Below, one piece after another: positions 13,018-50,705 of a DNA stretch of 64,000 nt. Position 1 is the stretch's first letter. The number at the start of each line of letters is the position of its first letter. A program made the position numbers and the translations under genes. Where the stretch lies: positions 54,907-118,906 of the forward strand of contig DHYV01000019.1 of assembly GCA_002414225.1 (NCBI GenBank), read 5' to 3'. Source of the DNA: Desulfobulbaceae bacterium UBA5121 (lineage in GTDB: Bacteria > Desulfobacterota > Desulfobulbia > Desulfobulbales > UBA5123). The notes under the pieces were generated by a model. That model was not told the DNA's origin. It saw nothing but the letters and a program-made list of their open reading frames with translations, and searched no databases.

Positions 13018-13513
13018 GGCTGGCGGCGGGGAATGGGGAAGGCGATGATCTGCATGGCTTCAACATAGCCAAAAGCTGCCAGGTCGGCAAGGGAACTGCA
13101 TGGTATGGGGCTGTTTGCCCGAGCGGTCAGTGGCCCACCTGTGAAGGTGGTGCCTATCGTGTCTGCGGAGTGCGTGTCAGTGATGGCTTTAAACGGGTGG
13201 CATGACTGTTCTTCGGTCATGACCGGTGTCATCCTGGCTGACGAGCCGGCTTCTTTTCCATGGTGAAGGGCGTTATTATGTCGGAATGGAGCAAAAAAGA
13301 AGATTAAAAAAATCTTGCTTTTTTTGAAGGGAGGTGATTGTATGATTTATTGCTTTAGAGTTTGTGTAGTAGATCCACCAAATGGTCAGCCAGCGAAAAC
13401 GCCGCACGACCTTGTGGAAGGTTGCTGCGGCCTTTTTTGTTCGGCTGTTGGATCCTGCACAGGAAATGCCTCCCGGTTGGGGGCAAGAATCAGCGAAACA
13501 TGAGGATTAGGAC

Positions 13514-13717
13514 ATGGCTGAAGGTACGGTAAAATGGTTTAACGATGGCAAGGGTTTTGGGTTTATTGCCCAGGAAAATGGTCCGGACGTGTTTGTGCAC
13601 TTCTCTGCTATTCAGGGTGAGGGCTTCAAGTCCCTTGCCGAGGGCGAGCGGGTCCAGTTCGATGTGGTTGACGGCGCCAAAGGCCCCCAGGCTTCAAATG
13701 TCGTTAAGCTTTCCTAA
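13514..13717 (+). CDS. cspA: cold-shock protein (CspA family)
   Basis: 67 aa with [12 protein letters not shown] (RNP1) and VFVHFSAI (RNP2). Confidence 0.95.
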
Positions 13718-13759
13718 TCTACGTAACTGAATCGTAAAGATTAGCAGGCTGCAAGCTCC

Positions 13760-13794
13760 AACGCCCCGCGGTTTTCCGCGGGGCGTTTTTTTTT
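13760..13794 (+). terminator. rho-independent terminator after csp
   Basis: aacgccccgcgg-tttt-ccgcggggcgtt followed by a T-run. Confidence 0.8.
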
Positions 13795-14004
13795 GCGTGC
13801 GCCCGGCACGTTCCCTTGGCGGTGCAAGTCCTCTCCTCGCCCGGCAACCCGGCAAGGTGAAGAGCTAGTTAAACGGCGGGCATGCGCAGACTCCGGGGGT
13901 GTTGCGGGTCCGGTTTCCTTCGAGACCTTGGTGCCCTGCTGGTCGTGGCGGAAAAGGCGCGGGGGATTGCTCCCGCCGGCCGGTCGCAGGCGGAGAGCAG
14001 AAGC

Positions 14005-14048
14005 AAAAAAAAGGCAGAGCCCGTCATGACGGGCTCTGCCTTTTTTTT
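14005..14048. terminator. bidirectional terminator-like perfect palindrome
   Basis: A8, then ggcagagcccgtca/tgacgggctctgcc, then T8. Confidence 0.6.
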
Positions 14049-14060
14049 GCGTTGCAGCCA

Positions 14061-14088
14061 CCGCCCGCCCCTACTGAGGGGCGGGCGG
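14061..14088 (-). terminator. GC hairpin just downstream of the cytochrome operon stop
   Basis: ccgcccgcccc-tactga-ggggcgggcgg, 23 nt after the stop at 14112. It has no U-run of its own but is followed (minus sense) by the 14005-14048 element. Confidence 0.4.
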
Positions 14089-14111
14089 CAGAAGTCACGC
14101 GGATGAACTGT

Positions 14112-15011
14112 TTACTTCTTTTCTTCTTTTTTGTCTTCCTTCTTGCGCTTCACCGGCAGGTTGTGCACGTCGAGATGGCAATCGAGGCAGCGCGGGGTCC
14201 GCTTGTGCAGAGCCTCGCCGTGCGGATGGCCATGGCACATCGTACACTCGGGGATCTGGCCGTGCTTGAGATGACAGCGGGCGCAGTTCACCGTGCCGTG
14301 CTTGCTCGGGGTGTGCGACCACTTGTCGTATTCTTCGGCGTGGCAGGCCTGGCAGGTGTTGACCTTGGTGTCAGCGCCATGGAACATGATCTGCAGCGGC
14401 TTGTGCGGATTATGGCAGGTCTTGCAATCCTCGAAGGTCTGGCCCGGGATGTGCGGCTCATGGCACTTGAAGCAGGTCGGGATCACCCCGTGCTTGTCGG
14501 TGTCATGGCAGGCCCGGCAGCCCTGCTTGGTATGCTTGCTGGGGAACTTGGTCAGCATATCGTTTTCAGCGGTGTGGCAGTTGCCGCAGTTGGCCTCAAG
14601 GTGCTTGGTGACCGGTACGTTGCGCGGCGTATGCGGGTTGGCGTGACAGGTCAAGCAATCCGTGAACTTGTCACCATGCGGCGGGGTCAAGTGGCAGTTC
14701 TTGCACTTGGGCATGATGTCGTCGTAGTTCTTCTTGCGCGGATTGTAGGCGTGGAAAACCTTGTGACAGTTCTGGCAGGCAAACTGATGGTGGCGGCCAT
14801 CGTCCTGCAGGTTCTTGAACTGCTTCACATGGCACTGTCCGCACTGTACCGGTAGCAACGGTGTCGGCGTCTCCTTGTACAGTTCGGGGGTGTGGGGGAT
14901 CTTCACCGTCTCTGCGCTAGCCGAGCCGGCCATGAGCGCCACGCAGACGACCGCCAGCAGCAGCCCGGGCGCGAACAACATCCTTCTAAAGATAGTCTGT
15001 TTTGATTTCAT
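14112..15011 (-). CDS. periplasmic dodecaheme c-type cytochrome
   Basis: 299 aa. Signal peptide ending SASAET. Twelve CxxCH motifs counted (CGQCH ... CLDCH), spaced as three four-heme modules. Lys/Glu-rich C-terminal tail. Confidence 0.9.
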   Translation of the reverse strand: MKSKQTIFRRMLFAPGLLLAVVCVALMAGSASAETVKIPHTPELYKETPTPLLPVQCGQCHVKQFKNLQDDGRHHQFACQNCHKVFHAYNPRKKNYDDIMPKCKNCHLTPPHGDKFTDCLTCHANPHTPRNVPVTKHLEANCGNCHTAENDMLTKFPSKHTKQGCRACHDTDKHGVIPTCFKCHEPHIPGQTFEDCKTCHNPHKPLQIMFHGADTKVNTCQACHAEEYDKWSHTPSKHGTVNCARCHLKHGQIPECTMCHGHPHGEALHKRTPRCLDCHLDVHNLPVKRKKEDKKEEKK

Positions 15012-15031
15012 CTCTCTATCCTATGTCCCTT

Positions 15032-15859
15032 CTATTTAATGATGTCATGGGCGATGTTGTGGCAGTGACCGCATTTCGGGAACTTCTTGTGGATTTTCTC
15101 GGGATGCGGCAGGCCATGGCAGTCCTGACACTGGGGCACGGTCTTGTGCTTCTTGGGGTGACAGAAGGCACAGGCAAAGGTCTTGTGTTTAGCGTTGCTT
15201 GCCCGCAGCTGGGTCAGCTCTTGTTCGTGGCAGGCGCCACAGAACTTGGAGTCGATGTTGTCGGGATAAGTCACCATCAGCGGTTTGTGCGGATCGTGGC
15301 AGGTGAGGCAATCCGACTGCTTCTGGCCGTCCAGATGCGGCGAATGGCAATGCTGGCATTGCGGGATGAAACCATGTTTCTCGCGGTGACAGGTGCTGCA
15401 GGCCACTTTGGTGGTATGCTTGCTGGGATACTTCTGCAGCTTCTCATACTCCTCGGTGTGGCAGGTCAAACAGGGTTTGGTGATGTTGTCGGGCAGGGTG
15501 ATGACCAACGGGGTATGGGGATTGTTGTGACACTGCAGACACTCGTTTGCCGGGGTCTTGGGGTCGTCCAAAGTGAAATGGGCACGATCCTGCGGATGGT
15601 GGCACTTGCTGCACTTGGGAATATTATCCGCAACCCTGGGTGGATGGCCCACGTGGCAGTCGACACAGGTTACCTTGGTCTTGTGCTTCTGGCCATTGGC
15701 CTCAATGGCGCGGGGCTCTTTGTCGTGGCATTTGATACAGTCGTCGACGCCCAACGCAGGCGCGGCCAACGCTTGCCCGGCCAGGCCGGATGCCGCCAAG
15801 AAGGCAGTCATCCCCAGGAGACATGCAAGCTTTTTGAATCTTTTCCTTTGAGTAGCCAT
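15032..15859 (-). CDS. periplasmic dodecaheme c-type cytochrome (tandem paralogue)
   Basis: 275 aa. AGGAGGAGGA RBS, signal peptide, and twelve CxxCH motifs (CIKCH ... CGHCH) with the same three-by-four module pattern. 20-nt gap to the next cytochrome gene. Confidence 0.9.
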   Translation of the reverse strand: MATQRKRFKKLACLLGMTAFLAASGLAGQALAAPALGVDDCIKCHDKEPRAIEANGQKHKTKVTCVDCHVGHPPRVADNIPKCSKCHHPQDRAHFTLDDPKTPANECLQCHNNPHTPLVITLPDNITKPCLTCHTEEYEKLQKYPSKHTTKVACSTCHREKHGFIPQCQHCHSPHLDGQKQSDCLTCHDPHKPLMVTYPDNIDSKFCGACHEQELTQLRASNAKHKTFACAFCHPKKHKTVPQCQDCHGLPHPEKIHKKFPKCGHCHNIAHDIIK

Positions 15860-39987: not shown

Positions 39988-40842
39988 GTGGAGATTAGCG
40001 ACCTCAGAATATTTTTAGCCGTTGCCCAACAGGGCAGCATTTCACGGGCAGCAGAGGAATTGCACTACGTCCAGTCCAATGTCACGGCGCGGATCAAGCA
40101 GCTGGAGGAGCGGCTGGGCACCGTTCTCTTCCACCGGAAAAGCAGGGGGGTGGTCATGACCTCCTCCGGGCAGCTCCTTTTGGACTATGCGCAACGAATT
40201 ATCCGATTGACCAAGGAAGCCGAGGAGGTGATCCGCGACCAAGGAGAACCGAAAGGCAGGCTTTTGATCGGGTCCATGGAAACGACCGCGGCTGTGCGGC
40301 TGCCTCCACTTCTGGCCAGCTATCATCGTTTGTATCCGAAAGTCGAGTTGAGCCTGGTCACCGGTTCGTCGGCAGAGTTGTTAAAACGGCTGCTTGATTA
40401 TCAAATCGATGGGGCTCTGGTGGCGGGAGAAATTTCTCAAGAAGCATTGCTCGTCGAGAAGGCCCATGAAGAGGAAATGGTTCTCGTGACCCCCCCGGAT
40501 GTTGATGACCCGGGACAACTGGCAAATTTCAAGATCCTTGTTCTGCGTGCCGACTGCGCTTGCCGGGCACAACTGGAGAAGTGGCTGCATAGCACCGGGC
40601 GACTGCCGTATCAAATTATTGAAATCGGCTCAATTGAGGGAATTATCGGCTGCGTTGCCGCCGGCATGGGGGTTGGTTTCATGCCGCGCTCGGTTGTCGA
40701 CAAAGCACACATTCGCAAAATTTGCGCGCTGCACTCCTTGCCCGATCATTTTGGCACCCTGACAACCTGGTTTGTTCGTCACCACACGGATAACACAAGC
40801 AGGGCCATGCAGGCTTTTAGAGATCTGGTCGTGGCTGAATAA
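39988..40842 (+). CDS. LysR-family transcriptional regulator
   Basis: GTG start. HTH block LRIFLAVAQQGSISRAAEELHYVQSNVTARIKQLEE and a typical LysR substrate-binding region. Divergent from the DUF1847-like gene. Confidence 0.9.
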   Translation: MEISDLRIFLAVAQQGSISRAAEELHYVQSNVTARIKQLEERLGTVLFHRKSRGVVMTSSGQLLLDYAQRIIRLTKEAEEVIRDQGEPKGRLLIGSMETTAAVRLPPLLASYHRLYPKVELSLVTGSSAELLKRLLDYQIDGALVAGEISQEALLVEKAHEEEMVLVTPPDVDDPGQLANFKILVLRADCACRAQLEKWLHSTGRLPYQIIEIGSIEGIIGCVAAGMGVGFMPRSVVDKAHIRKICALHSLPDHFGTLTTWFVRHHTDNTSRAMQAFRDLVVAE

Positions 40843-41037: not shown

Positions 41038-41859
41038 TCAGGCAATCCCGTTTATCCCCACCCCATCCAGCGCCGCCAGCCGGTCGATGAGCAGTTCGAT
41101 ATCGCGGGGGCCGATGATGATGTTGCCGTGCTGGGGGGCGATGGTTTGGATGGGCAGCCCCCGGATCTGGTTCATGGCGTGGTGGAGCGCCTTGTCGCTG
41201 GTCATCACCTTGCGGTGGAAGTCGTATACGGCCTGGATGGGGCAGTAGGGGCGGTGCTCGGGGCAGGACGAGATATCGTTGCAGCTGTAACAGCGCGAGC
41301 CGAGGGAGAAGAAGATATCCTCGGCGTGGTAGTAGAAACTGCCGAAGAGGTCGCTGCTGAACAGGGTGCCGGTGGCCTCATCGTAGGTGACGAAACTGCC
41401 GGGGCTGTGGGCGTAAGGGGTGTTGATGAAGCGCAGCCGGCGGTTGTTGAGCAGAACGGCATTGTCCTGCTGGCCGATGTCTTCGATGAGGGGATAGTGG
41501 TCCTTGTGAATGTAATAGGAGATGAAGAGGTTGTTGGGCTGCGTCGACAGAATCCTGAGTTCGGGGTTTTTGCAGATGTCGATCAGGTTGGACATGGAGC
41601 CGCAGAGGTCGGGATCGTAATGCTGATAGATTAGGGCGGTGATGTTTGCCGGGTCGATACCGGCCTGGAGGATCTTCATCATCACATTGGCGAAGTCGGC
41701 GCGGCTGCCGCCGTCGATGAGCACCGCCCGGTCGCCGTCGACGACCAGATAGGGGTTGCAGTGGAGGCTGGCATCCACCTCGTGGCTGCCGACCCAGTAG
41801 ATGCCGTCGGCAACCGTTACCGGGTGGTCGATCTGCGCGGGTTCCATCATGACTGACAT
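41038..41859 (-). CDS. MBL-fold protein (flavodiiron/ODP-like or phosphodiesterase-like), Cys-rich C-terminal part
   Basis: MSVMMEPAQ... start at 41859, or 41850 with an ATGA overlap on the cyclase stop. VLIDGG, a divergent metal motif QHYDPD, TPYAHSPG, and CYSCNDISSCPEHRPYC. The upstream part of track ORF 41038..42405 is out-of-frame read-through of the cyclase gene. Confidence 0.8.
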   Translation of the reverse strand: MSVMMEPAQIDHPVTVADGIYWVGSHEVDASLHCNPYLVVDGDRAVLIDGGSRADFANVMMKILQAGIDPANITALIYQHYDPDLCGSMSNLIDICKNPELRILSTQPNNLFISYYIHKDHYPLIEDIGQQDNAVLLNNRRLRFINTPYAHSPGSFVTYDEATGTLFSSDLFGSFYYHAEDIFFSLGSRCYSCNDISSCPEHRPYCPIQAVYDFHRKVMTSDKALHHAMNQIRGLPIQTIAPQHGNIIIGPRDIELLIDRLAALDGVGINGIA

Positions 41860-42662
41860 ACCTCTGCGGGGTGTTGGCGTTCGTCGGCCACGAGATAGGC
41901 GACCATGGCCGGCTTGTTCTTGAGGGTGATGGCCCCTCGTTTTTCGAAGGCGAAAGCGTGTTCGGCCTCTCGATAGGTTGCCTGGGAGACGTTGACCCGG
42001 CCGGGGAGTCCCGCCGACTCGAAGCGGGAGGCGATGTTGACGTCGTCGCCGAAGACGTCGAACTGCATGCGTTCCGTGCCGACCACTCCGGCCATCACCT
42101 GGCCGGTATGGATGCCCAGCCGCATTGCCAGGGGGTGCTCCCGGCCGCGGTTGAATGCGCGGATGAATTCCTGCATGGCCAGACCGGCCCGGATCGCCAG
42201 GACCGGATGAGCTGCCACCTCCTCGGGGGCGCCGAACACCGCCATGTAGGAGTCGCCGATGGTCTTGACCTTGGTGCCGCCGGCGTCGGCCACCAGTCGG
42301 TCGAAGCCGCTGAAGATCGTGTCGAGGGTTTCGACGAGCTGTTCGGGCGGAACCTTTTCGGCCAGCGCGGTGAAGCCGACGAAGTCGGTGAAGAGGATGG
42401 TGCACTGATAGCGGCGCGGCGTAAAACGGCTGCGGTACTTGATCTCATCGGCCACCCCGACCGGCAAGGTGTTCTTGAGGAGGCTGTCCACTCGTTTTTC
42501 GAGCCGGACGTAGGATCTGAGCAGCTCGCTGAGCAGGCTTTTCTGGAGGGCGTCGTCCCGGATCAGCGACAGGGAGTCGAGATAGGTCAAGAGAAGGGCG
42601 TTGACCGAGTCCCGGCTGGCCTCCGCGCCTTGATAGAGCGTGAGCAGGGTATGGGTTTCCAT
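41847..42662 (-). CDS. class III adenylate/guanylate cyclase (adenylate-type residues), short helical N-terminus
   Basis: 271 aa with FTDFVGFT, VKTIGDSYMAVFG (Lys as in adenylyl cyclases), FDVFGDDVNIASRFES. AAGGA RBS. Confidence 0.9.
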   Translation of the reverse strand: METHTLLTLYQGAEASRDSVNALLLTYLDSLSLIRDDALQKSLLSELLRSYVRLEKRVDSLLKNTLPVGVADEIKYRSRFTPRRYQCTILFTDFVGFTALAEKVPPEQLVETLDTIFSGFDRLVADAGGTKVKTIGDSYMAVFGAPEEVAAHPVLAIRAGLAMQEFIRAFNRGREHPLAMRLGIHTGQVMAGVVGTERMQFDVFGDDVNIASRFESAGLPGRVNVSQATYREAEHAFAFEKRGAITLKNKPAMVAYLVADERQHPAEVCQS

Positions 42663-42696
42663 CGGGTATCCTTGGCAGCGAGAGAGGGGGGGCGGG

Positions 42697-43158
42697 TCAG
42701 CCGATGGCGTCCTTGACCGCCTGGGCTCTTGCGAGGTGAATTTCGGTTTCCTTGGCCAGTTGTTTCAACACGGAGCGCGCCTTCTCCGTCATCCCGTCGA
42801 AGTGGTTGAAGATGTTTTTTTCGAGCAGCGAGCGCTCCAGGTCAACGGTGGCGGCTACGGCATGGGACAGGGTGAGCTGGTTGTCCTCCGCCTTGGCGAG
42901 GATCTGCTCGACATATTCAATGAAGCTGCTCACCGTGTAGGTTTTGATCTTCCCCTCCTGGAAGAGCACCACTCCCTTGTCGGCGGCCTCATGGAGCTGC
43001 TGCAGCCAGCTGGCGTGCTTGTGTTCCTCCTTGGCAAGGGTGTTCCAGAGTTCCGCGTGCTGCGGAAACTGCGCGGCGAAAAGGGAATAGAGCTTGCAAA
43101 GAAGTTGTTCCTGACGGACCAGGGAGTCGAGCATCTTCTTTTGGTAGGGTTTGAGCAT
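42697..43158 (-). CDS. ferritin-like four-helix-bundle protein (possible di-iron)
   Basis: 153 aa, all-helical text, with AKEEHKH (ExxH) and a second acidic/His block KETEIH that is imperfect. 34-nt gap to the cyclase gene. Confidence 0.65.
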   Translation of the reverse strand: MLKPYQKKMLDSLVRQEQLLCKLYSLFAAQFPQHAELWNTLAKEEHKHASWLQQLHEAADKGVVLFQEGKIKTYTVSSFIEYVEQILAKAEDNQLTLSHAVAATVDLERSLLEKNIFNHFDGMTEKARSVLKQLAKETEIHLARAQAVKDAIG

Positions 43159-43373
43159 GGTTTATGCGCCTCGTCCTCGGCGTGGAGAAAATTAATCACT
43201 GGCAAACATTTAAGCCTAATTTTGGGGCGGCGGCAAGTGAGTGTTTCTGTCAGGAAGGCGGTTTTCGCCGGCGCTTCGTGTATTGCATTCCTGTCCCCCG
43301 CTGCGCTACTCTTTTTGGGAGAGATTCGGCAAACCGGGGCGTTGGTCGCGCTGGCTGCGGCAAGGGAGGGCTG

Positions 43374-44618
43374 ATGGCGCTGGAACTGGGCAGGATCATG
43401 GTCGAGGAGGTCGTCTTGGGCGAGGCGACCTGGCTCGCCGGCCGGACCTTGGTGGTGGGGCGTGAAGAGCTTGACGATTTTCTTCGCGGCAGCGACGCAC
43501 GACTCGCCCGGATCGATGTCTCCCTGGCGAGCCCCGGCGACGATTGCCGGATCGTCTGCGTCAAGGATGTCATCGAGCCGCGGGTGAAGGTGGCCGGCGA
43601 CCGGATCGGCGTCGGCCGCACCCTTATCCTCAATGGGGTGGCGGTGGTCACCTGCGGCCAGATCGTCGGCTTCCAGGAGGGGATCATCGACATGCGCGGC
43701 CCGGGTGCGGCCCATTCGCCCTTCAGCCAGACCATGAACGTGGTGCTGGATATCGCGGTGGTCGACGGCCTCTCCCCCCACCAGCACGAGGAGGCGGTCC
43801 GGCTTGCCGGGCTGCGGGCCGCCGCTTTCCTGGCCGAAGCGGCGCGCAAGGCGCGGCCCGAGGCGGTGGCGTGTTACGAGGAACTCGTGGCGAGCGCCGG
43901 TTCCCCCTCACTGCCCCGGGTGGCCTATCTCTACATGCTGCTCAGCCAGGGTCTGCTCCACGACACCTATGTCCTGGGAGAAAACGCCCAAGGCGGGCTG
44001 CCCCGCGACATCTCCCCCCTGGCGCTCCTCGACGGAGCCATCACCTCGGGCAACTGCGTCAGCGCCTGCGACAAGAACACCACCTTTCATCACCAGAACA
44101 ATCCGCTCCTTGCCGAGCTGCTGGCCCGCCACGGCCGCGAACTCAATTTCGTCGGCGTGGTGCTCACCAACGAGCCGGTGCGCTTGGCCGACAAGGAAGC
44201 GTCGGCCCGTCGGGCCGTGGCCCTTCTCATGGAGCTGGCCCCGGCCGGGGTGGTGATCAGCAAGGAGGGGTTCGGCAACCCGGACGCCGACCAGATGATG
44301 TTGATCCGCGGCCTGGAGCAGGCGGGGATCAGGACGGTATCGATCACCGACGAGTACGCCGGCCCGGACGGCGCTTCCCAGTCCCTGGCCGATATCACCG
44401 CCGAGGCCGACGCCATCGTCTCGGCGGGCAACGCCAATGCACGCATCGTCCTGCCGGCCATGGCCCGCACCTTGGGGCCCCTTGCCGACCTGAGCAGGCT
44501 GGCCGGGGCCTATCCCCAGAGCCTGCGGCCGGACGGTTCCGTGGAGATCGAGCTGCAGGGATTGATCGGCGCCACCAACCAGCTGGGCTGGCAGCGCTTG
44601 CGGGCCAGGGAGGTGTAG
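43374..44618 (+). CDS. grdE: glycine/sarcosine/betaine reductase component B proprotein (GrdE/GrdG/GrdI-like)
   Basis: ATG at 43374 after AAGGGAGGG; 414 aa. GAITSGNCVSACDKNTTFHHQNNP contains the Asn-Cys (Cys228) expected for pyruvoyl-forming self-cleavage. The stop lies 3 nt before the grdB-like start. Confidence 0.8.
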   Translation: MALELGRIMVEEVVLGEATWLAGRTLVVGREELDDFLRGSDARLARIDVSLASPGDDCRIVCVKDVIEPRVKVAGDRIGVGRTLILNGVAVVTCGQIVGFQEGIIDMRGPGAAHSPFSQTMNVVLDIAVVDGLSPHQHEEAVRLAGLRAAAFLAEAARKARPEAVACYEELVASAGSPSLPRVAYLYMLLSQGLLHDTYVLGENAQGGLPRDISPLALLDGAITSGNCVSACDKNTTFHHQNNPLLAELLARHGRELNFVGVVLTNEPVRLADKEASARRAVALLMELAPAGVVISKEGFGNPDADQMMLIRGLEQAGIRTVSITDEYAGPDGASQSLADITAEADAIVSAGNANARIVLPAMARTLGPLADLSRLAGAYPQSLRPDGSVEIELQGLIGATNQLGWQRLRAREV

Positions 44619-44621
44619 GGA

Positions 44622-45941
44622 ATGGCGATACGGGTGGTGCACTATCTGAACCAGTTCTTCGGCGGCCTGGGCGGCGAGGAGCAGGCCGGAGTCGGTCCCT
44701 CCCTGGTGGCCGGCGCCAAGGGGCCCGGCATCCTGCTGGAACGGCTCCACCCGGATCTCTTGGTGGTGGCCACGGTGGTCTGCGGCGACAACGCCCTGGC
44801 CGAGCGTCCCGAAGCCATGGTGGCCGAGATCCTCGACCTGCTGGCGCCTTTGTTTGCCGCCGGTCAGGAGGAGCGGCCGCAGCTGCTCGTCGCCGGCCCC
44901 GCCTTTAACGCCGGCCGGTACGGGCTCGCCTGCGGCGCGGTCTGTCAGGCGGTGGCCGAGCGGTACGGGATACCGGTGGTCACCGCCATGGCCCCTGAAA
45001 ACCCCGGGGTCGAGCAGTACCGCCACGCGGTGCCCATGGTCGCCACCGCCCTGGACGTGGGCGGCATGGCGGCGGCGCTTGGCGGCATGGCCGCGCTGGG
45101 CGGGAAGCTTGTCAAAGGTGTGGAGGTACTGCCGGAACGGGACGGCTATCTGCCCCAGGGGTTGCGCAGAAACGTCTGGGCGGCCGAAAGCGGGGCGCAG
45201 CGGGCGGTGGCCATGCTGCTCGCCAAGCTGCATGGCGAGCCCTTTGCCACCGAGTACGCCATGCCGGTCTTCGACCGGGTGGAGCCGGCCCCGGCCATTG
45301 CCGACCTGAGCCGCGCCACCCTGGCCCTGGTCACCTCGGGCGGCATCGTCCCCCGGGGCAACCCGGACCGCATCGAGGCGGCCAACGCCCAGAAGTACGG
45401 CGCCTATTCGCTCACCGGCCTGGCGGCCTTAAGCCCGGCAAGCCATCAGACCGCCCACGGCGGCTATGACCCCACCTACGCCAACGACGACCCCAACCGG
45501 GTGCTGCCCCTGGACGCGGTGCGGGAACTCGAGGCAACGGGCCGCATCGGCCGCCTCCATGAAACCTACTTTGCCACCGTGGGCAACGCCACCTCGGTGG
45601 CCAACGCCCGCCGTTTCGGCCAGGAGATCGCTCACCGGCTGCTGTCGGCCCGGGTGCAGGCGGTGATCCTCACCTCCACCTGAGGTACCTGCACTCGTTG
45701 CGGGGCAACGATGGTCAAGGAGATCGAACGGGCCGGGATCACGGTGGTGCACTGCTGCTCCATCGTTCCCATCTCGCTCACCGTGGGCGCCAACCGCATC
45801 GTGCCCACCGTCGCCATTCCCCACCCCTTCGGCGACCCGGCCAAGACGGTTGCCGAGGAGCGGGCGCTGCGGAGGCAGCTGGTGGAGCGGGCCCTCCAGG
45901 CCCTGGCCACCCCAGTGAGCGGCCAGCAGGTTTTTTCCTGA
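44622..45941 (+). CDS. grdB: glycine/sarcosine/betaine reductase selenoprotein B (GrdB/F/H-like); in-frame UGA at 45681-45683 read as selenocysteine
   Basis: N-terminus MAIRVVHYLNQFFGGLGGEEQA. Track ORFs 44622..45683 and 45711..45941 are in the same frame. Read-through gives TST-U-GTCTRCGATMVKEIERAGITVVHCCSIVPISLTVGANRIVP (UxxCxxC). Confidence 0.85.
45695..45711 (+). promoter_or_regulatory. SECIS-like hairpin downstream of the grdB UGA
   Basis: Perfect stem tcgttgc / gcaacga with a GGG loop, starting 11 nt after the UGA. Confidence 0.5.
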
Positions 45942-45948
45942 AATTTCC

Positions 45949-46404
45949 CTATTCTTCCCGCTTCTCCCCCAGGGTCTTGAGGATGGCGGCCAGGGCCTCT
46001 TCCTCCAACTCCAGCTCGTAGATGGCCATCTGTTCCTCCCACACCGGGGCCGGGATTTCTCCTTTCAGCTCCATGATGTGGTAGGTGGCGAGCCCCAGTC
46101 CGACCCCGGCCAGCGGCCCGGCAAAGCTCGGGTCGCCGCTGCGGAAGGTGGTGGCCATGATGGCCAGGGCGCTGGGCTGGTTGATGCCGGTCACCACCAG
46201 CAGTTCTTGGTTGCCGTACCGTTCGGCAAGGTTCTTGACCTCTTCCTGCTCCGTAAAACTTACGGCGCCGGCCGCGGTTCAGACAAAGCAGGCGGTGGCC
46301 TCGTAGAGGATCTCGCAGCCCGCCGCTCGCAGACAGGCGGCGATGGTGGTCCCGGAGATATCATCCCGTTCGCCAAAGACGATGGCCTTCTTGCCCTGCA
46401 GCAT
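45949..46404 (-). CDS. grdA: glycine reductase complex selenoprotein A; in-frame UGA (plus-strand 46279-46281) read as Sec42
   Basis: Manual translation from ATG 46404 (AAGGGAGG RBS): MLQGKKAIVFGERDDISGTTIAACLRAAGCEILYEATACFV-U-TAAGAVSF...GDPSFAGPLAGVGLGL.... This carries the CxxU motif of GrdA. The track shows only the part after the UGA (45949..46197). Confidence 0.85.
46251..46265 (-). promoter_or_regulatory. SECIS-like hairpin downstream of the grdA UGA
   Basis: Minus-strand ccgtaa-gtt-ttacgg, starting 13 nt after the UGA. Confidence 0.4.
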
Positions 46405-46435
46405 GGTTCATACCTCCCTTGCCCTGATTCAGTTG

Positions 46436-47905
46436 TCAGCTGGTACCGGCCCGCGGGTTCCGTTCCATGATGAAGGAAACCCCGTCCAGCAGGTTGGTGC
46501 AGCGGTTGAGAAAGATGCTGGCCCGGGCCAGGAACATGGCCCGCCTGATCTCGCCCCGCGCCATGGCCGCCATGGCGTGGCCCAGGTAGGGAACGGCCGA
46601 GGGGATGTGGCCCTGGGTGGGGGCAAAGCCGACCATGCCCACCCGGCCGATCCACGCCTCCATCTCCTCCTTGGCCAGTTGCCCGGCCCGCACCGCCATG
46701 GCCGCGATCTTGCGGTAGTTCTTTTTGGTCACGTCGCCGGAGCCGGCAAACTCGGTGATCTCCGGGTTCTGCAGCTCCGGGGCAAAGCGGTCGATGTCGG
46801 TGAGCTTGAGCCCCAGGGCCGTGAGCGGCGCCAACAGGTAGTGGCGGAAGACCGCCTCGTCCGAGGTGCTGGCCGCCACCGGCACCTTGCCTACCGCCCC
46901 CGGATCCAGGCGGATGACGGGATTTTCGCCGTCGTCCTCGCCGACCAGGAAGGCCATGGCGGCCAGCGCGTCGTCCAGGATCGGCATCTCGTGGTCGAGA
47001 AAGGCCTGGAACTTCATGCCCAGCTTGGCAAGCGAGCCGCCGCCCACCACCACCACGCGGCGGTGGACCCCGGCCCGGACCAGGGCCGCCGCGGTGATGA
47101 TGGCCGAGGCCGGGGCGGCGCAGAAGTTCTTGAGGTCCATGCCCGAGGCGTTAGGGCAGCCGCAGAGTTCGGCGATCGCCTTGGCCATGCCGCCGCCGCC
47201 CCGCTGGTAGCGGTCGCCGCATGCCTCCTCGCCGCAGCTGATCACGAAGTCGACCTCTTCCGGGTCGATTCCCGCCCGGTGGAGGAGCCAGGTCAGGGCC
47301 AGGCCGCCCGAGGCCTTGGTGCAGAGGTTTTCCAGGAGATGGTGGGCGGCGAGGTTCTCATCGTCGCTGCCCTCGGCCCGCAGGTCGCCGTGAAAAGAGC
47401 CGAAGACTTCGTCGTGCAGGGTGAGGGGCAGGGCCGCCGCCGGTGCCGCGGCCGGGGCGCTTTCCATGGACCGGTCAGCGAGATCGGCGCCGAAATGGGC
47501 CAGCAGGGGATGGCCGGCCAGCCGGCGGGCGAGCCGCTGCCGGTGCGTGTCGTCGCAGATGAGGAGGGGGGGCTGCAGGGCGTCGGCCCGGAGCAAGAGG
47601 CCGTAAAAGGTTTCCTGGTCGATGATCTCGCCAAAGGGGCCACGGCTGGGCGCCTTGGCGTCCGGCGGTGGCCGGAACCAGGGGCGCTCAATGCCGCCCA
47701 GTGCCTCCGGGCTGAGGTTGCCGATGAAGGTCTGGTTGGCGGGGTAGGAAACGGCCTCCTTAAAAGAGCGCAGCCGGTGGGCGAGTTGGCTGGCGAGCTC
47801 CGGCGCCCTGGCCAGTTCCCGACGCGGCTTGGAGCCGTACCGCACCAGATCCGGCACATGGGCAAGGCAGTAGGCAACACTCTTGATCACCGGCCAGCTG
47901 GGCAT
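46436..47905 (-). CDS. grdC: glycine reductase complex component C, beta subunit-like (GrdC)
   Basis: 489 aa. N-terminus MPSWPVIKSVAYCLAHVPDL; CGEEACGDRYQRGGGGMAKAIAE; MVGFAPTQGHIPSAVPY. 31-nt gap to grdA. Confidence 0.8.
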   Translation of the reverse strand: MPSWPVIKSVAYCLAHVPDLVRYGSKPRRELARAPELASQLAHRLRSFKEAVSYPANQTFIGNLSPEALGGIERPWFRPPPDAKAPSRGPFGEIIDQETFYGLLLRADALQPPLLICDDTHRQRLARRLAGHPLLAHFGADLADRSMESAPAAAPAAALPLTLHDEVFGSFHGDLRAEGSDDENLAAHHLLENLCTKASGGLALTWLLHRAGIDPEEVDFVISCGEEACGDRYQRGGGGMAKAIAELCGCPNASGMDLKNFCAAPASAIITAAALVRAGVHRRVVVVGGGSLAKLGMKFQAFLDHEMPILDDALAAMAFLVGEDDGENPVIRLDPGAVGKVPVAASTSDEAVFRHYLLAPLTALGLKLTDIDRFAPELQNPEITEFAGSGDVTKKNYRKIAAMAVRAGQLAKEEMEAWIGRVGMVGFAPTQGHIPSAVPYLGHAMAAMARGEIRRAMFLARASIFLNRCTNLLDGVSFIMERNPRAGTS

Positions 47906-48250
47906 GAATTCCTTTCTCTCGCCGAAGGAGACACCGATTGCCTGACTCCCTGGAGTTGGCTTGTGTGCCGCGTTCCAGCGCCATCTTTTCTTCTAATATA
48001 CATGAGTTGTCGGGTTCGCGGCGGTGATTTTAGCGTCTTGCAGATACTGAGCCACCGGCCGTTATGTCTTGGCCTGCCGGCATGATGCGGGGAGGGCGGA
48101 GCGGATGGCCGCCCTCCAGCCTCGGAGCGCCTCGCGTCACCCTGCTGTCCCCCTCGGTAAAAGGGGGATCTTCCGGAACCTGCCCGCCTTTTTTCGTTTT
48201 TTCGCCTTGTTCTGCTTGTGATGCGAGTCCGCCAGTTGTAAATACAGGCT

Positions 48251-48943
48251 ATGTCCTTGATCTGCGACAGTATTGGCTTCACCTATCCCGACGCCGCGCT
48301 CCCACTTTTTTCCAATGTGTCGTTCCGGTTGCCGGCACCGGGCTTTCATGCCTTTTTCGGACCATCAGGGGTGGGGAAGACCTCGCTGGCCAGGATCATC
48401 ACCGGCGGTATCGGCCGCTTTTCCGGCACGGTTACCAGCGCCGGCCTCAGAACCCTCCTCTACTCCTACAACACCGAGCGGCTCCCCGGCTGGTCCAGCG
48501 TCGGCCGCCACCTGGAACGGGTCATCCCGCCTTCGCAGCACCGCCGCCTGGCGGAACTGGTGGAAATCTTCGGGCTCGCCGACTGCATCGGCTCCCGCTT
48601 CAACCGCCTCTCCATGGGGCAGCGCAACCGGGTCAACCTGATCCGCTACCTGCTCCAGGACTGCGACCTGCTGATCATGGACGAGAGCCTGGCCAATGTC
48701 GATGAACTGACCCGGGAAAAGATCATCCTGGCCGTGAAGGCGCTCTTTCCCGAGCGCTACTTCATCTATATCTCCCACAACGTCACGGAGGTCGCCAGGT
48801 TTTGCGATGCGATCCTGGTCTTTCGCAGCGCCGACAAGGCGCCGCAGACCGTGATGGTGCAGGGGGGCAACCTCCGGGACGGGGAGAGCCTGTCGCGCTC
48901 GGCCCTGGACGCCACGCTCCTGGAGATCATGAATGCTGCCTAG
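48251..48943 (+). CDS. ABC transporter ATP-binding protein (NitT/TauT-like)
   Basis: Walker A GPSGVGKTS, signature LSMGQRNR, Walker B LLIMDES. 11-nt overlap with the permease gene. Confidence 0.9.
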   Translation: MSLICDSIGFTYPDAALPLFSNVSFRLPAPGFHAFFGPSGVGKTSLARIITGGIGRFSGTVTSAGLRTLLYSYNTERLPGWSSVGRHLERVIPPSQHRRLAELVEIFGLADCIGSRFNRLSMGQRNRVNLIRYLLQDCDLLIMDESLANVDELTREKIILAVKALFPERYFIYISHNVTEVARFCDAILVFRSADKAPQTVMVQGGNLRDGESLSRSALDATLLEIMNAA

Positions 48944-49691
48944 GCGGATCCTCCAGTTCCTGATCATCTACTGTCTCTTCATCGGCACCCTCATGCTGGT
49001 CAAGTATGGCTTACGGCTTTCCGATTACGTGATCCCGGCGCCCGCGGCCATCTTCCAGACCCTGCTTGCCGAGTACCGCCAGTACACCCTCGCCACCATG
49101 AACACCTTGACCGTGGCGGTGGTGGGCCAGGTGCTGTCGGTGATCCTGGCGTTCGCCATCGGCATCGTCGGCCGGCGCTCCACCTGGTTCGGCTCCTTCA
49201 TCAAGGTCGCCGCCTACAATATCCAGGCCTATCCCATCGTGGCCCTGGCCCCGATCCTTTTCATCCTGCTGGGCGACGGCTTCCTCACCCGGCTGCTGAT
49301 CGCGGCCATGATCTGTTACTTTCCGGTGCTCCTCTCGGTGCTGGGGATTATGTCCAAGCCGGTGGAGGACATCGAGCATTTCTACCGGGCCACCGGCAAG
49401 ATGCGTTGGCAGCTGGAGGTCAAGATCCGGGCCTTTGAAAACCTCTCCCAGCTGACCACGGTGATCTCGGGCAGCGCCACCCTGGCCATGGCCGGCACCA
49501 TCGTGGCGGAGTTCATCGCCGCCGATGCCGGCATCGGCTACAGCATCCGCATCGCCCTCTACCAGAGCGATCTGGGCAAGATCGTGATCGCCCTCTTCCT
49601 GATCGGGATCACCATCGCCGCCTACCAGGGGCTGCTGGAGCTGCTCGGCTCGGCGGTGAAACGGGCCTGGACCGGCAATGCCCTTTCGTAA
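48933..49691 (+). CDS. ABC transporter permease (NitT/TauT-like)
   Basis: 252 aa, about six hydrophobic helices, with an EAA-like loop region (ATGKMRWQLEVKIRAFENL). Confidence 0.9.
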   Translation: MLPRRILQFLIIYCLFIGTLMLVKYGLRLSDYVIPAPAAIFQTLLAEYRQYTLATMNTLTVAVVGQVLSVILAFAIGIVGRRSTWFGSFIKVAAYNIQAYPIVALAPILFILLGDGFLTRLLIAAMICYFPVLLSVLGIMSKPVEDIEHFYRATGKMRWQLEVKIRAFENLSQLTTVISGSATLAMAGTIVAEFIAADAGIGYSIRIALYQSDLGKIVIALFLIGITIAAYQGLLELLGSAVKRAWTGNALS

Positions 49692-49700
49692 GGAGGAACG

Positions 49701-50705
49701 GTGAAGAACGGAACAGAAAAGAGAGTGCTGGCGGCCTGGCTGCTGCTGGTGGCGATCCTGTGGAGGAGCAGCGCCTTGGCCGCTGACAAGGTGACCTACC
49801 GGCTGAAATGGCTCTACAACGTCAGCGTGGTGGGGGCGCTCTACGCCCAGACCCATCACCTGTTCGAGAGGGCGGGGCTTACCGTGGAGGTCAAGTCGGG
49901 CGGGCCTGAGCGGGACGCCATCCGGGAGCTGGAGCTGGGGTATGCGGATTTCGGCGCCGCCTCGGCCGATCAGGTGCTGCGGGCCCGGGCCAAGGGCTCG
50001 CCGGTGGTGGTGATCGCCCAGTTGTTCCAGGTCAATCCGCTCCAGTGGCTCTATCGGCCGGCTGAGGTGCGGATCGGAAAACTTGCCGACCTCAAGGGCA
50101 AGGTCATCGGTGTGACCTACGGCGGCAACGACGAAACCATCATGCGCACCCTGCTCGGCAAGGGCGGCATCACGACCGGCGAGGTGGACCTGTTCAGCGT
50201 CCGCTTCGACTACACGCCCTTCTACCGCCACCGGGTGCAGCTCTGGCCGGTGTACCGCAACGCCCAGGGGCCGATGATCAGCGACCAGCTGGCCAAGGCC
50301 GGGGAAGCAACCGCTTACTTCAATCCCGCCGATTTCGGGGTACGGTTCGTGGCCAACTCCGTGGTCACCGAGGCGCGCACCTTAGAGGAAAAGCCCGAGC
50401 TGGTGCAGCGGTTTCTCGCCGCCCTGCTGGCGGGCTGGCAGCAGGCGCTTGATCCCAAGAACGAAGAGGAGGCCATCAAGACCCTGCAACAGTTCGATCC
50501 GGACACCAGCTCACGGCCGATCCTCGCCGAGCAGTTGCGGATCACCCGTGAGCTGGTGCAGCCCACCCCAGGTTTTGCCATCGGCACCATCGATCACCAG
50601 GCCTGGGAACAGACCGAGAAGATCATGCTGGGCCAGAAGCAGCTCTCCCGGCAGGTCGATCTCAAGGCGGTTCTCAAGCCGATTGCCGTTCTCTCTGGCC
50701 GATAA
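49701..50705 (+). CDS. ABC transporter substrate-binding protein (NMT1/SsuA/TauA-like)
   Basis: GTG start 5 nt after AAGGAGG; signal peptide ending SSALAADK; 334 aa. Confidence 0.85.
   Translation: MKNGTEKRVLAAWLLLVAILWRSSALAADKVTYRLKWLYNVSVVGALYAQTHHLFERAGLTVEVKSGGPERDAIRELELGYADFGAASADQVLRARAKGSPVVVIAQLFQVNPLQWLYRPAEVRIGKLADLKGKVIGVTYGGNDETIMRTLLGKGGITTGEVDLFSVRFDYTPFYRHRVQLWPVYRNAQGPMISDQLAKAGEATAYFNPADFGVRFVANSVVTEARTLEEKPELVQRFLAALLAGWQQALDPKNEEEAIKTLQQFDPDTSSRPILAEQLRITRELVQPTPGFAIGTIDHQAWEQTEKIMLGQKQLSRQVDLKAVLKPIAVLSGR

Follow-up and report, generated by a model that had tools for sequence, protein, structure and literature searches.

The locus analyzed here raises a question of gene structure. 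Two open reading frames (ORFs), listed mechanically as 44622..45683 (353 aa, ending in ...AVILTST*) and 45711..45941 (76 aa), lie in the same frame on a 64,000-nucleotide stretch of DNA (64 kb; hereafter the window), and they may be either two genes separated by a TGA stop codon or a single gene in which this codon is translated. An earlier reading of the sequence alone (the sequence-only reading) had placed both ORFs, and the stop at 45683, precisely where we find them, and had proposed that the TGA is a selenocysteine (Sec) codon within a grdB-like gene. The features of the locus are the following.

43374..44618, forward strand: grdE-type proprotein gene (alpha/beta subunits of protein B), 414 aa, PF09338
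44622..45941, forward strand: GrdB-family selenoprotein B gene, 439 aa with predicted Sec at residue 354 (translation, TIGR01918, PF07355)
45681..45683, forward strand: in-frame UGA, predicted selenocysteine codon (TGA at the aligned codon in 80/80 homologous loci)
45684..45721, forward strand: SECIS element (Rfam SECIS_4, RF01990), 57.7 bits, apical hairpin at 45695-45711
45949..46404, reverse strand: grdA (selenoprotein A), 151 aa, in-frame TGA at 46279-46281, CFV-U-TAAG, CxxU
46251..46265, reverse strand: SECIS-like hairpin of grdA, CCGUAA-GUU-UUACGG, 13 nt after the grdA UGA
46436..47905, reverse strand: grdC (protein C, beta subunit), 489 aa, directly upstream of grdA

Reading frame and family membership across the in-frame UGA

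Translated in one frame, 44622..45941 presents a single interruption, TST*GTCTRCGATMVKEIERAGITVVHCCS..., which becomes U-x-x-C-x-x-C if the TGA stands for Sec; past this codon the frame (TST*GTCTRCGATMVKEIERAGITVVHCCSIVPISLTVGANRIVPTVAIPHPFGDP...) stays open as far as the stop at 45939-45941. The read-through product reads TST-U-GTCTRCGAT around the UGA (TST-U-GTCTRC at 45681-45701), with U354, C357 and C360 as the residues of the motif (U354-x-x-C357-x-x-C360). The sequence-only reading had recognized this arrangement as the Sec motif of protein B, and UxxCxxC is indeed the Sec motif given for GrdB, GrdF and GrdH in PMC6778437, which cites Wagner et al. 1999 for it; together with CxxU in GrdA, it counts among the established motifs of these proteins (PMC6778437, PMC13188914). 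The ATG of the gene is preceded, 8 nt upstream, by GGGAGG. Its GC3 is 0.88 before the TGA and 0.90 after it, and hence the coding signal continues past this codon. Since an NCBI MAG and Logan runs, assembled independently, contain the same sequence, the TGA is not an assembly error. In public annotation, large protein collections included, the gene is on record as separate 353-aa and 76-aa proteins, a split that the sequence-only reading had predicted for standard gene callers.

Scored with Cys in place of Sec, the read-through product matches TIGR01918, the selenoprotein B subfamily, from end to end (569 bits, cut-off 65.45; residues 4-438 against positions 1-430 of the 431 in the model), and PF07355 with E = 1.4e-138. 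The end-to-end match to TIGR01918 depends on the 85 residues that follow the UGA and therefore supports the read-through product, which the sequence-only reading had described as continuous and protein-B-like. These profiles place the product, over its full length, in the GrdB/GrdF/GrdH/PrdB selenoprotein B family. A sequence search of solved structures gave no relative of it.

Within this family, the label 'grdB-like' of the sequence-only reading stands as a statement of membership but must stay generic, for the product scores below the equivalog cut-offs of GrdB, GrdF and GrdH alike. It remains about 9% under the cut-off of the glycine GrdB model (TIGR01917, 546.9 bits against 602.2). GrdF is its top or near-top specific model, yet the score is far under the cut-off (NF040794 for sarcosine GrdF, 561.1 bits against 800), as it also is for betaine GrdH (NF040795, 483.2 against 775); the grdE-type partner matches GrdG best among the NCBIfam models, with 421 bits of the 780 required. 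The window protein shares with GrdF and GrdH the family (TIGR01918, PF07355), the Sec motif and the type of GrdE-like partner (GrdG or GrdI), and it differs from them in that no betaine/choline/carnitine-type (BCCT) transporter adjoins the window module. The resemblance to PrdB of D-proline reductase lies in a homologous, Sec-containing C-terminal half and in a partner, PrdA, that is also a pyruvoyl proprotein. PrdB, however, is about 240 aa long, GrdA and GrdC play no part in proline reductase, and the PrdB model (TIGR04483) yields only 85 bits against a cut-off of 300, with only residues 215-413 matched. The likeness to GrdB-type protein B is closer in architecture, comprising a length of about 436 aa, a U-x-x-C-x-x-C Sec motif some 85 residues from the C-terminus and a SECIS of the same sequence family directly following the UGA. 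Nonetheless, the window protein is only 52-56% identical to full-length Firmicutes-type GrdB members and carries a 7-aa insertion near residue 80.

The SECIS element

Starting with the first base 3' of the UGA, the match to RF01990 takes in the model completely (positions 1-38 of 38). Its 57.7 bits exceed the gathering score of 38, with E = 4.9e-11 calculated over the entire window, so that the check with a bacterial SECIS model that had been suggested for this region turns out in favor of the element. Only four positions of the matched sequence depart from the consensus; the loop reads GGG, as opposed to GGU in the consensus, at a loop position that is free among homologues. The hairpin that the sequence-only reading had pointed out is present as described, a perfect 7-bp stem (TCGTTGC/GCAACGA) closed by a GGG loop at 45695-45711, 11 nt after the UGA. 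Perfect 7-bp hairpins occur in the 64-kb window 9 times with a 3-nt loop and 79 times with loops of 3-8 nt, and from the window counts the chance of such a hairpin starting 5-25 nt after any given position is about 0.026. The single-sequence folding energy of the SECIS region shows no separation from that of shuffled sequences (z = +0.15 and -0.5). Hence, the case for the element rests on the covariance model and on comparative evidence, and not on thermodynamics.

This comparative evidence is drawn from 78 distinct sequences, in which 92.9% of the cells of the SECIS pairing are paired, against 22-63% in slid controls where the 3' partner was moved by 1-3 columns. Compensatory changes are found at pair 18-28, from UA to CG (71 UA, 7 CG, 0 unpaired), and at pair 15-31, from UA to GC (50 UA, 6 GC, 22 unpaired), and the covariation score of 0.089 compares with 0.045 for shuffled alignments, with 0/500 shuffles reaching the observed value. 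The third codon positions of the stem (columns 18, 21, 27 and 30 of alignment A2) are nearly fixed, even though changes there would be synonymous, whereas homologues differ freely at the wobble positions of the loop and beyond the stem (columns 6, 9, 12 and 15, and loop column 24, are variable in the same alignment). We count the near-fixed wobble positions and the compensatory pairs as pointing to a constraint at the RNA level, with the caveat that the stem also encodes the conserved RCGAT and that the protein thus constrains part of the stem.

Conservation of the UGA and rival readings

Homologous loci were searched with one genome per species, yielding 80 loci from 80 species that span Firmicutes, Desulfobacterota, Alphaproteobacteria, Spirochaetota and other groups; the best match in this species-representative search comes from a Desulfurivibrionaceae MAG and is 63% identical. 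At the aligned codon, 80/80 loci have TGA, which speaks for Sec in the column comparison that the sequence-only reading had put forward. GrdA and GrdB are reported to have few or no Cys homologues, and both had already been catalogued in Deltaproteobacteria (PMC1794560). The next nine codons, G[T/S][C/G/D]TRCGA[T/A], follow in frame in 80/80 loci, and the stem CGTTGC/GCAACG is kept in every one of them.

If the TGA were a true stop, the locus would hold either a truncated pseudogene or a 353-aa protein accompanied by an independent 76-aa peptide started at ATG 45711. The separate entries for both pieces in public annotation would fit such a layout, as would the ATG present at 45711, shortly downstream of a G-run. 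Yet from the TGA to this ATG nine codons remain in frame in 80/80 species and show wobble variation of the coding type, and the family models align unbroken across the TGA. Several homologues (among them loci L004, L007, L008, L021 and L042) have Leu or Ile in place of the Met with which the 76-aa ORF starts, and this Met is hence not a conserved start. Nor would one and the same codon have acquired a fixed nonsense mutation in 80 species of several phyla. The sequence-only reading had named as evidence against itself homologues that genuinely end at this position, with the downstream part encoded separately; what the 80 loci present is a frame that goes on in all of them. Both the pseudogene and the pair of separate proteins were rejected on the conservation of the TGA and of the downstream frame, and on the lack of conservation of the Met, and we regard termination at this codon as very improbable.

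Reading of the UGA as a standard amino acid, be it Trp or Gly through an alternative genetic code or Cys or Trp through near-cognate suppression, strikes us as scarcely credible. It finds some backing in the protein database, where full-length relatives (52-56% identity) show W, and once G, at the Sec column; the close relatives (61-81% identity) all end at 352-357 aa. But the DNA of the homologous loci is TGA, and not TGG or GGN, at this codon, and we thus attribute the W and G letters to gene callers run with genetic codes 4 and 25. TGA is also an ordinary stop in the window, where it ends about 13 of 45 ORFs at their expected C-termini, as in grdC (TGA 46436-46438), and an alternative genetic code was rejected for this reason. 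To this may be added the 62% G+C of the genome, the conservation of a dedicated SECIS and the fact that Sec has been established biochemically at this position of GrdB (Wagner et al. 1999, cited in PMC6778437). We are therefore highly confident that 44622..45941 is one GrdB-family gene in which the UGA encodes Sec. From the sequence evidence, the apparent stop at 45681-45683 is almost certainly read as selenocysteine, and the two records would stem from an ordinary split-gene annotation error.

Neighbouring grd genes and Sec decoding

As in GrdB-type systems, the gene comes directly after one for a GrdE-type pyruvoyl proprotein, and GrdA, with its CxxU Sec, and GrdC are also present. The mechanical ORF of the grdE-type gene starts at 43164, while both the NCBI gene call (414 aa) and the family match start at 43374; its product matches PF09338 (Gly_reductase) with E = 9.5e-151, from residue 71 of the long ORF onwards. 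It contains the sequence SGNCVSACDKN, invariant in a 13-sequence alignment, whose Asn-Cys we take to be the cleavage site of the pyruvoyl proprotein; this cleavage was reportedly described by Bednarski and colleagues in 2001.

Lying tail to tail with the GrdB-family gene, grdA repeats the situation of its neighbor. Its read-through product reaches 152.4 bits on NF040748, against a cut-off of 130 (model positions 1-149 of 151), and it passes this equivalog cut-off only when the TGA is read through; public annotation splits it into pieces of 41 and 82 aa. TGA occupies the Sec codon in 69/69 grdA copies of the homologous loci. The hairpin that follows the grdA UGA has an MFE of -16.8 kcal/mol (z = -2.1) and shows compensatory changes at two pairs among six sequences of the clade discussed below. 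A permissive Rfam search of 42600-48400 returned no family matching this hairpin and no glycine riboswitch. As for further selenoprotein genes, a crude scan for in-frame TGA codons found only grdA, the scan being of low sensitivity, as it missed the GrdB-family gene itself.

Directly upstream of grdA, grdC scores 539.3 bits on NF040746 against a cut-off of 450 (model positions 1-476 of 477) and carries the Pfam domains DUF5940 and ACP_syn_III. In contrast to the GrdB operon, grdA and grdC of the window are convergent on the opposite strand and do not form one operon with the GrdB-family gene. The window also departs from GrdB-type systems in having no grdD, trxA or trxB nearby. GrdD, the alpha subunit of protein C, carries the active-site thiol in E. 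acidaminophilum. A tblastn search with GrdD from L031 located grdD in 36 loci, directly after grdC, and gave none in the 64-kb window or in the loci of the clade; neither trxA nor trxB was among the genes called within 10 kb on either side of the GrdB-family gene. All three may have their place in another part of the genome. The module is flanked in the window by an SsuA/NMT1-type ABC transporter and a LysR regulator.

With regard to the decoding machinery, ARAGORN found no tRNA in the 64-kb window, and hence no tRNA-Sec there; Pfam scans of its roughly 45 ORFs found no SelA, SelB or SelD, and no sel genes were present in the recovered flanks, which cover about 7 kb upstream and 1 kb downstream of the window. 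The occurrence of a second gene, grdA, with a TGA at a known Sec position provides indirect support for the notion that the organism decodes Sec.

Proposed function and substrate

The gene product is, in all likelihood, the Sec-containing protein B subunit of a glycine-reductase-type (Grd) complex. From what is observed at the locus (the UGA, the motif, the family membership, the SECIS match, its conservation and covariation, and the partner genes) we infer Sec insertion, chemistry and substrate by analogy with characterized systems. According to the established bacterial Sec pathway, the SECIS at 45684-45721 in the mRNA would recruit SelB with Sec-tRNA(Sec), Sec would be inserted at the UGA as Sec354 and the ribosome would go on for another 85 codons. 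The ensuing chemical steps are modelled on the enzymes of Eubacterium acidaminophilum and Clostridium sticklandii (summarised in PMC13188914 and PMC6778437). The proprotein encoded by 43374..44618 would cleave itself at the Asn-Cys of SGNCVSACDKN to generate a pyruvoyl group, and this group of the GrdE-type subunit would form an imine with the amino-acid substrate. Sec354 of the U-x-x-C-x-x-C motif would then attack the alpha-carbon and take over the carboxymethyl group, with release of the amine, and the carboxymethyl group would pass to the Sec of GrdA (CxxU, 45949..46404). Finally, protein C, of which GrdC is present, would make an acetyl thioester and then acetyl phosphate.

As to the substrate, glycine appears the most likely one, a view we hold with some reserve. 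In four relatives of the clade (L003, L004, L008 and L083), a gene for a Kbl/BioF-like alpha-oxoamine synthase and an SDR gene lie beside the module. The Kbl/BioF-like genes match glycine C-acetyltransferase best, with 319-322 bits (cut-off 460), and L004 has in addition a weak SHMT-family match (PF00464, E = 1e-27). The pair probably constitutes a threonine-to-glycine route, and its presence in these four relatives suggests threonine-derived glycine as the substrate. In the 64-kb window itself the Kbl/SDR pair is absent.

A clade below the specific cut-offs

The window belongs to a small clade that also comprises the metagenome contigs L083 and L084, the Desulfurivibrionaceae MAGs L003 and L062, and the Alphaproteobacteria/Rhodospirillaceae MAGs L004 and L008. 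Its members have in common the convergent layout of grdE'B' and grdA-grdC, a 7-aa insertion near residue 80 of GrdB', a 12-aa deletion in GrdE', sub-threshold scores for both GrdB' and GrdE' and a grdA SECIS hairpin of their own. The organism from which the window derives is itself probably a member of the Desulfobacterota. Among the literature matches listed, none links glycine reductase to Desulfobulbales or to cable bacteria.

These peculiarities bear on the possibility that the protein is the Sec-containing protein B of a reductase for something other than glycine, such as sarcosine, betaine, or an uncharacterised amine or alpha-substituted acetate, in which case the clade would stand for a distinct Grd-type enzyme. 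The window protein and those of L003, L004 and L083 score 520-553 bits on TIGR01917 (520.6-553.2 for the three relatives, under the cut-off of 602.2), against 625.8-740.1 for GrdB of Syntrophus, Desulfovibrio and Firmicutes, and both the clade indels and the high-ranking, if far from sufficient, score on the GrdF model can be cited to the same effect. The flanking transporter and regulator genes of the window would also agree with a different substrate, and protein B pairs of unclear specificity are likewise reported in PMC6778437. On the other hand, the ABC transporter is no conserved feature of the clade, the shortfall of the window protein on TIGR01917 is small, and the Kbl/BioF-like and SDR genes beside the module in four relatives, along with the SHMT-family match in L004, point to a supply of glycine. 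We thus deem a substrate other than glycine rather unlikely, and retain glycine as our preferred proposal. The broader suggestion that the clade is a distinct Grd-type reductase, defined by another substrate or by a GrdD-independent protein C, and maybe spread horizontally outside the Firmicutes, is put forward as a speculative and improbable one.

Implications

Sec in a GrdB-family gene is a known kind of feature, and its occurrence here is ordinary and adds no new biological feature. The Sec of GrdB and GrdA, the SECIS hairpins and the presence of these genes in Deltaproteobacteria have been documented since 1999-2006 (PMC1794560, PMC1242214, PMC6778437), and what is known of Sec decoding is left unchanged. 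Mildly new is the sub-threshold clade, found in Desulfurivibrionaceae and in some Alphaproteobacteria MAGs, in which grdD and thioredoxin genes were not found nearby. The practical value of the analysis lies in correct annotation, inasmuch as split records of this kind would make metabolic reconstructions miss or mislabel a Grd-type reductase module in this organism. Beyond this, it extends the Sec-dependent Grd system to a further lineage outside the Firmicutes and flags a sub-clade that may differ in substrate and in the composition of protein C.

Selenocysteine column and motif variants

In the full-length GrdB homologues of the protein alignment A1 (database matches P0005-P0080, drawn from a collection of 5.8 billion proteins), the column of Sec354 is occupied by tryptophan, or by glycine in one sequence. 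All of the homologous genomic loci examined, on the other hand, carry TGA at this codon, and the W and G letters are most likely mistranslations arising from gene calling under genetic codes 4 and 25. In the nucleotide alignment A2, the first cysteine of the UxxCxxC motif is replaced by glycine in loci L021, L053, L056 and L060 (GTGTRCG) and by aspartate in L007 (GTDTRCG), and these loci retain both the Sec codon and the SECIS despite the replacement. The L021 homologue also scores below the GrdB cut-off, and the GrdB-family homologues with glycine or aspartate at this position may represent another specificity group.

Features of the grd module

Two indels are common to the clade relatives of the window (L083/L084, L062, L003, L004 and L008): the grdE-type proprotein GrdE' (43374-44618, +) lacks a 12-residue segment, GGIFPGxISxVxT, that is present in canonical GrdE, and GrdB' (44622-45941, +) bears a 7-residue insertion near residue 80. 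The module also includes a second selenoprotein gene:

45949-46404, minus: grdA, its reading frame split by an in-frame TGA at 46279-46281 (CFV-U-TAAG)
46251-46265, minus: hairpin CCGUAA-GUU-UUACGG, downstream of this TGA

Public annotation renders grdA as two fragments of 41 and 82 aa. The hairpin is clade-specific and displays compensatory changes, and it has no match among the Rfam SECIS families.

No grdD, encoding the protein C alpha subunit, was detected by tblastn in the whole 64-kb window. The gene was likewise not detected in the 10 kb on each side of grdB in at least ten other loci whose flanks are complete or nearly so (L003, L007, L008, L019, L021, L030, L033, L054, L056 and L063), mostly MAGs labelled outside the Firmicutes. 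The same search places grdD directly 3' of grdC in 36 loci, mostly from Firmicutes or Desulfovibrio. Either grdD is located elsewhere in the grdD-negative systems or these function without GrdD.

Genomic neighborhood

Other features of the window are:

13329-13790, plus: match to the cspA thermoregulator (Rfam RF01766; 84.6 bits, gathering score 78), extending over a cold-shock protein gene's leader and its coding region
39988-40842, plus: LysR regulator, upstream; top match PtrR, with a weaker match to a selenium-metabolism-associated LysR model
41038-41850, minus: ODP-family metallo-beta-lactamase-fold protein
41847-42662, minus: guanylate/adenylate-cyclase-domain protein
42697-43158, minus: rubrerythrin-like protein
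48251-50705, plus: ABC transporter (ATPase, permease and NMT1/SsuA-family binding protein), divergent from grdC

The three minus-strand genes run divergently from grdE'. Neither the transporter nor the LysR regulator is kept in the clade relatives. In the Rhodospirillaceae MAG locus L008, a gene with a domain of the UGSC family, a predicted selenoprotein family, lies close to the grd module (13758-15134, minus).

Of a gene pair not found in the window, one member belongs to the SDR/epimerase family and the other encodes a Kbl/BioF-like alpha-oxoamine synthase. The pair adjoins the module in clade relatives:

L083, 5291-7515
L003, 12708-14952
L004, 6319-8977
L008, 6411-8623

The pair occurs also in L033 and, more distantly, in L030. 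The top NCBIfam match of the synthase is glycine C-acetyltransferase, at a score below cut-off. Taken as a pair, these genes look like a threonine-to-glycine feeder route.
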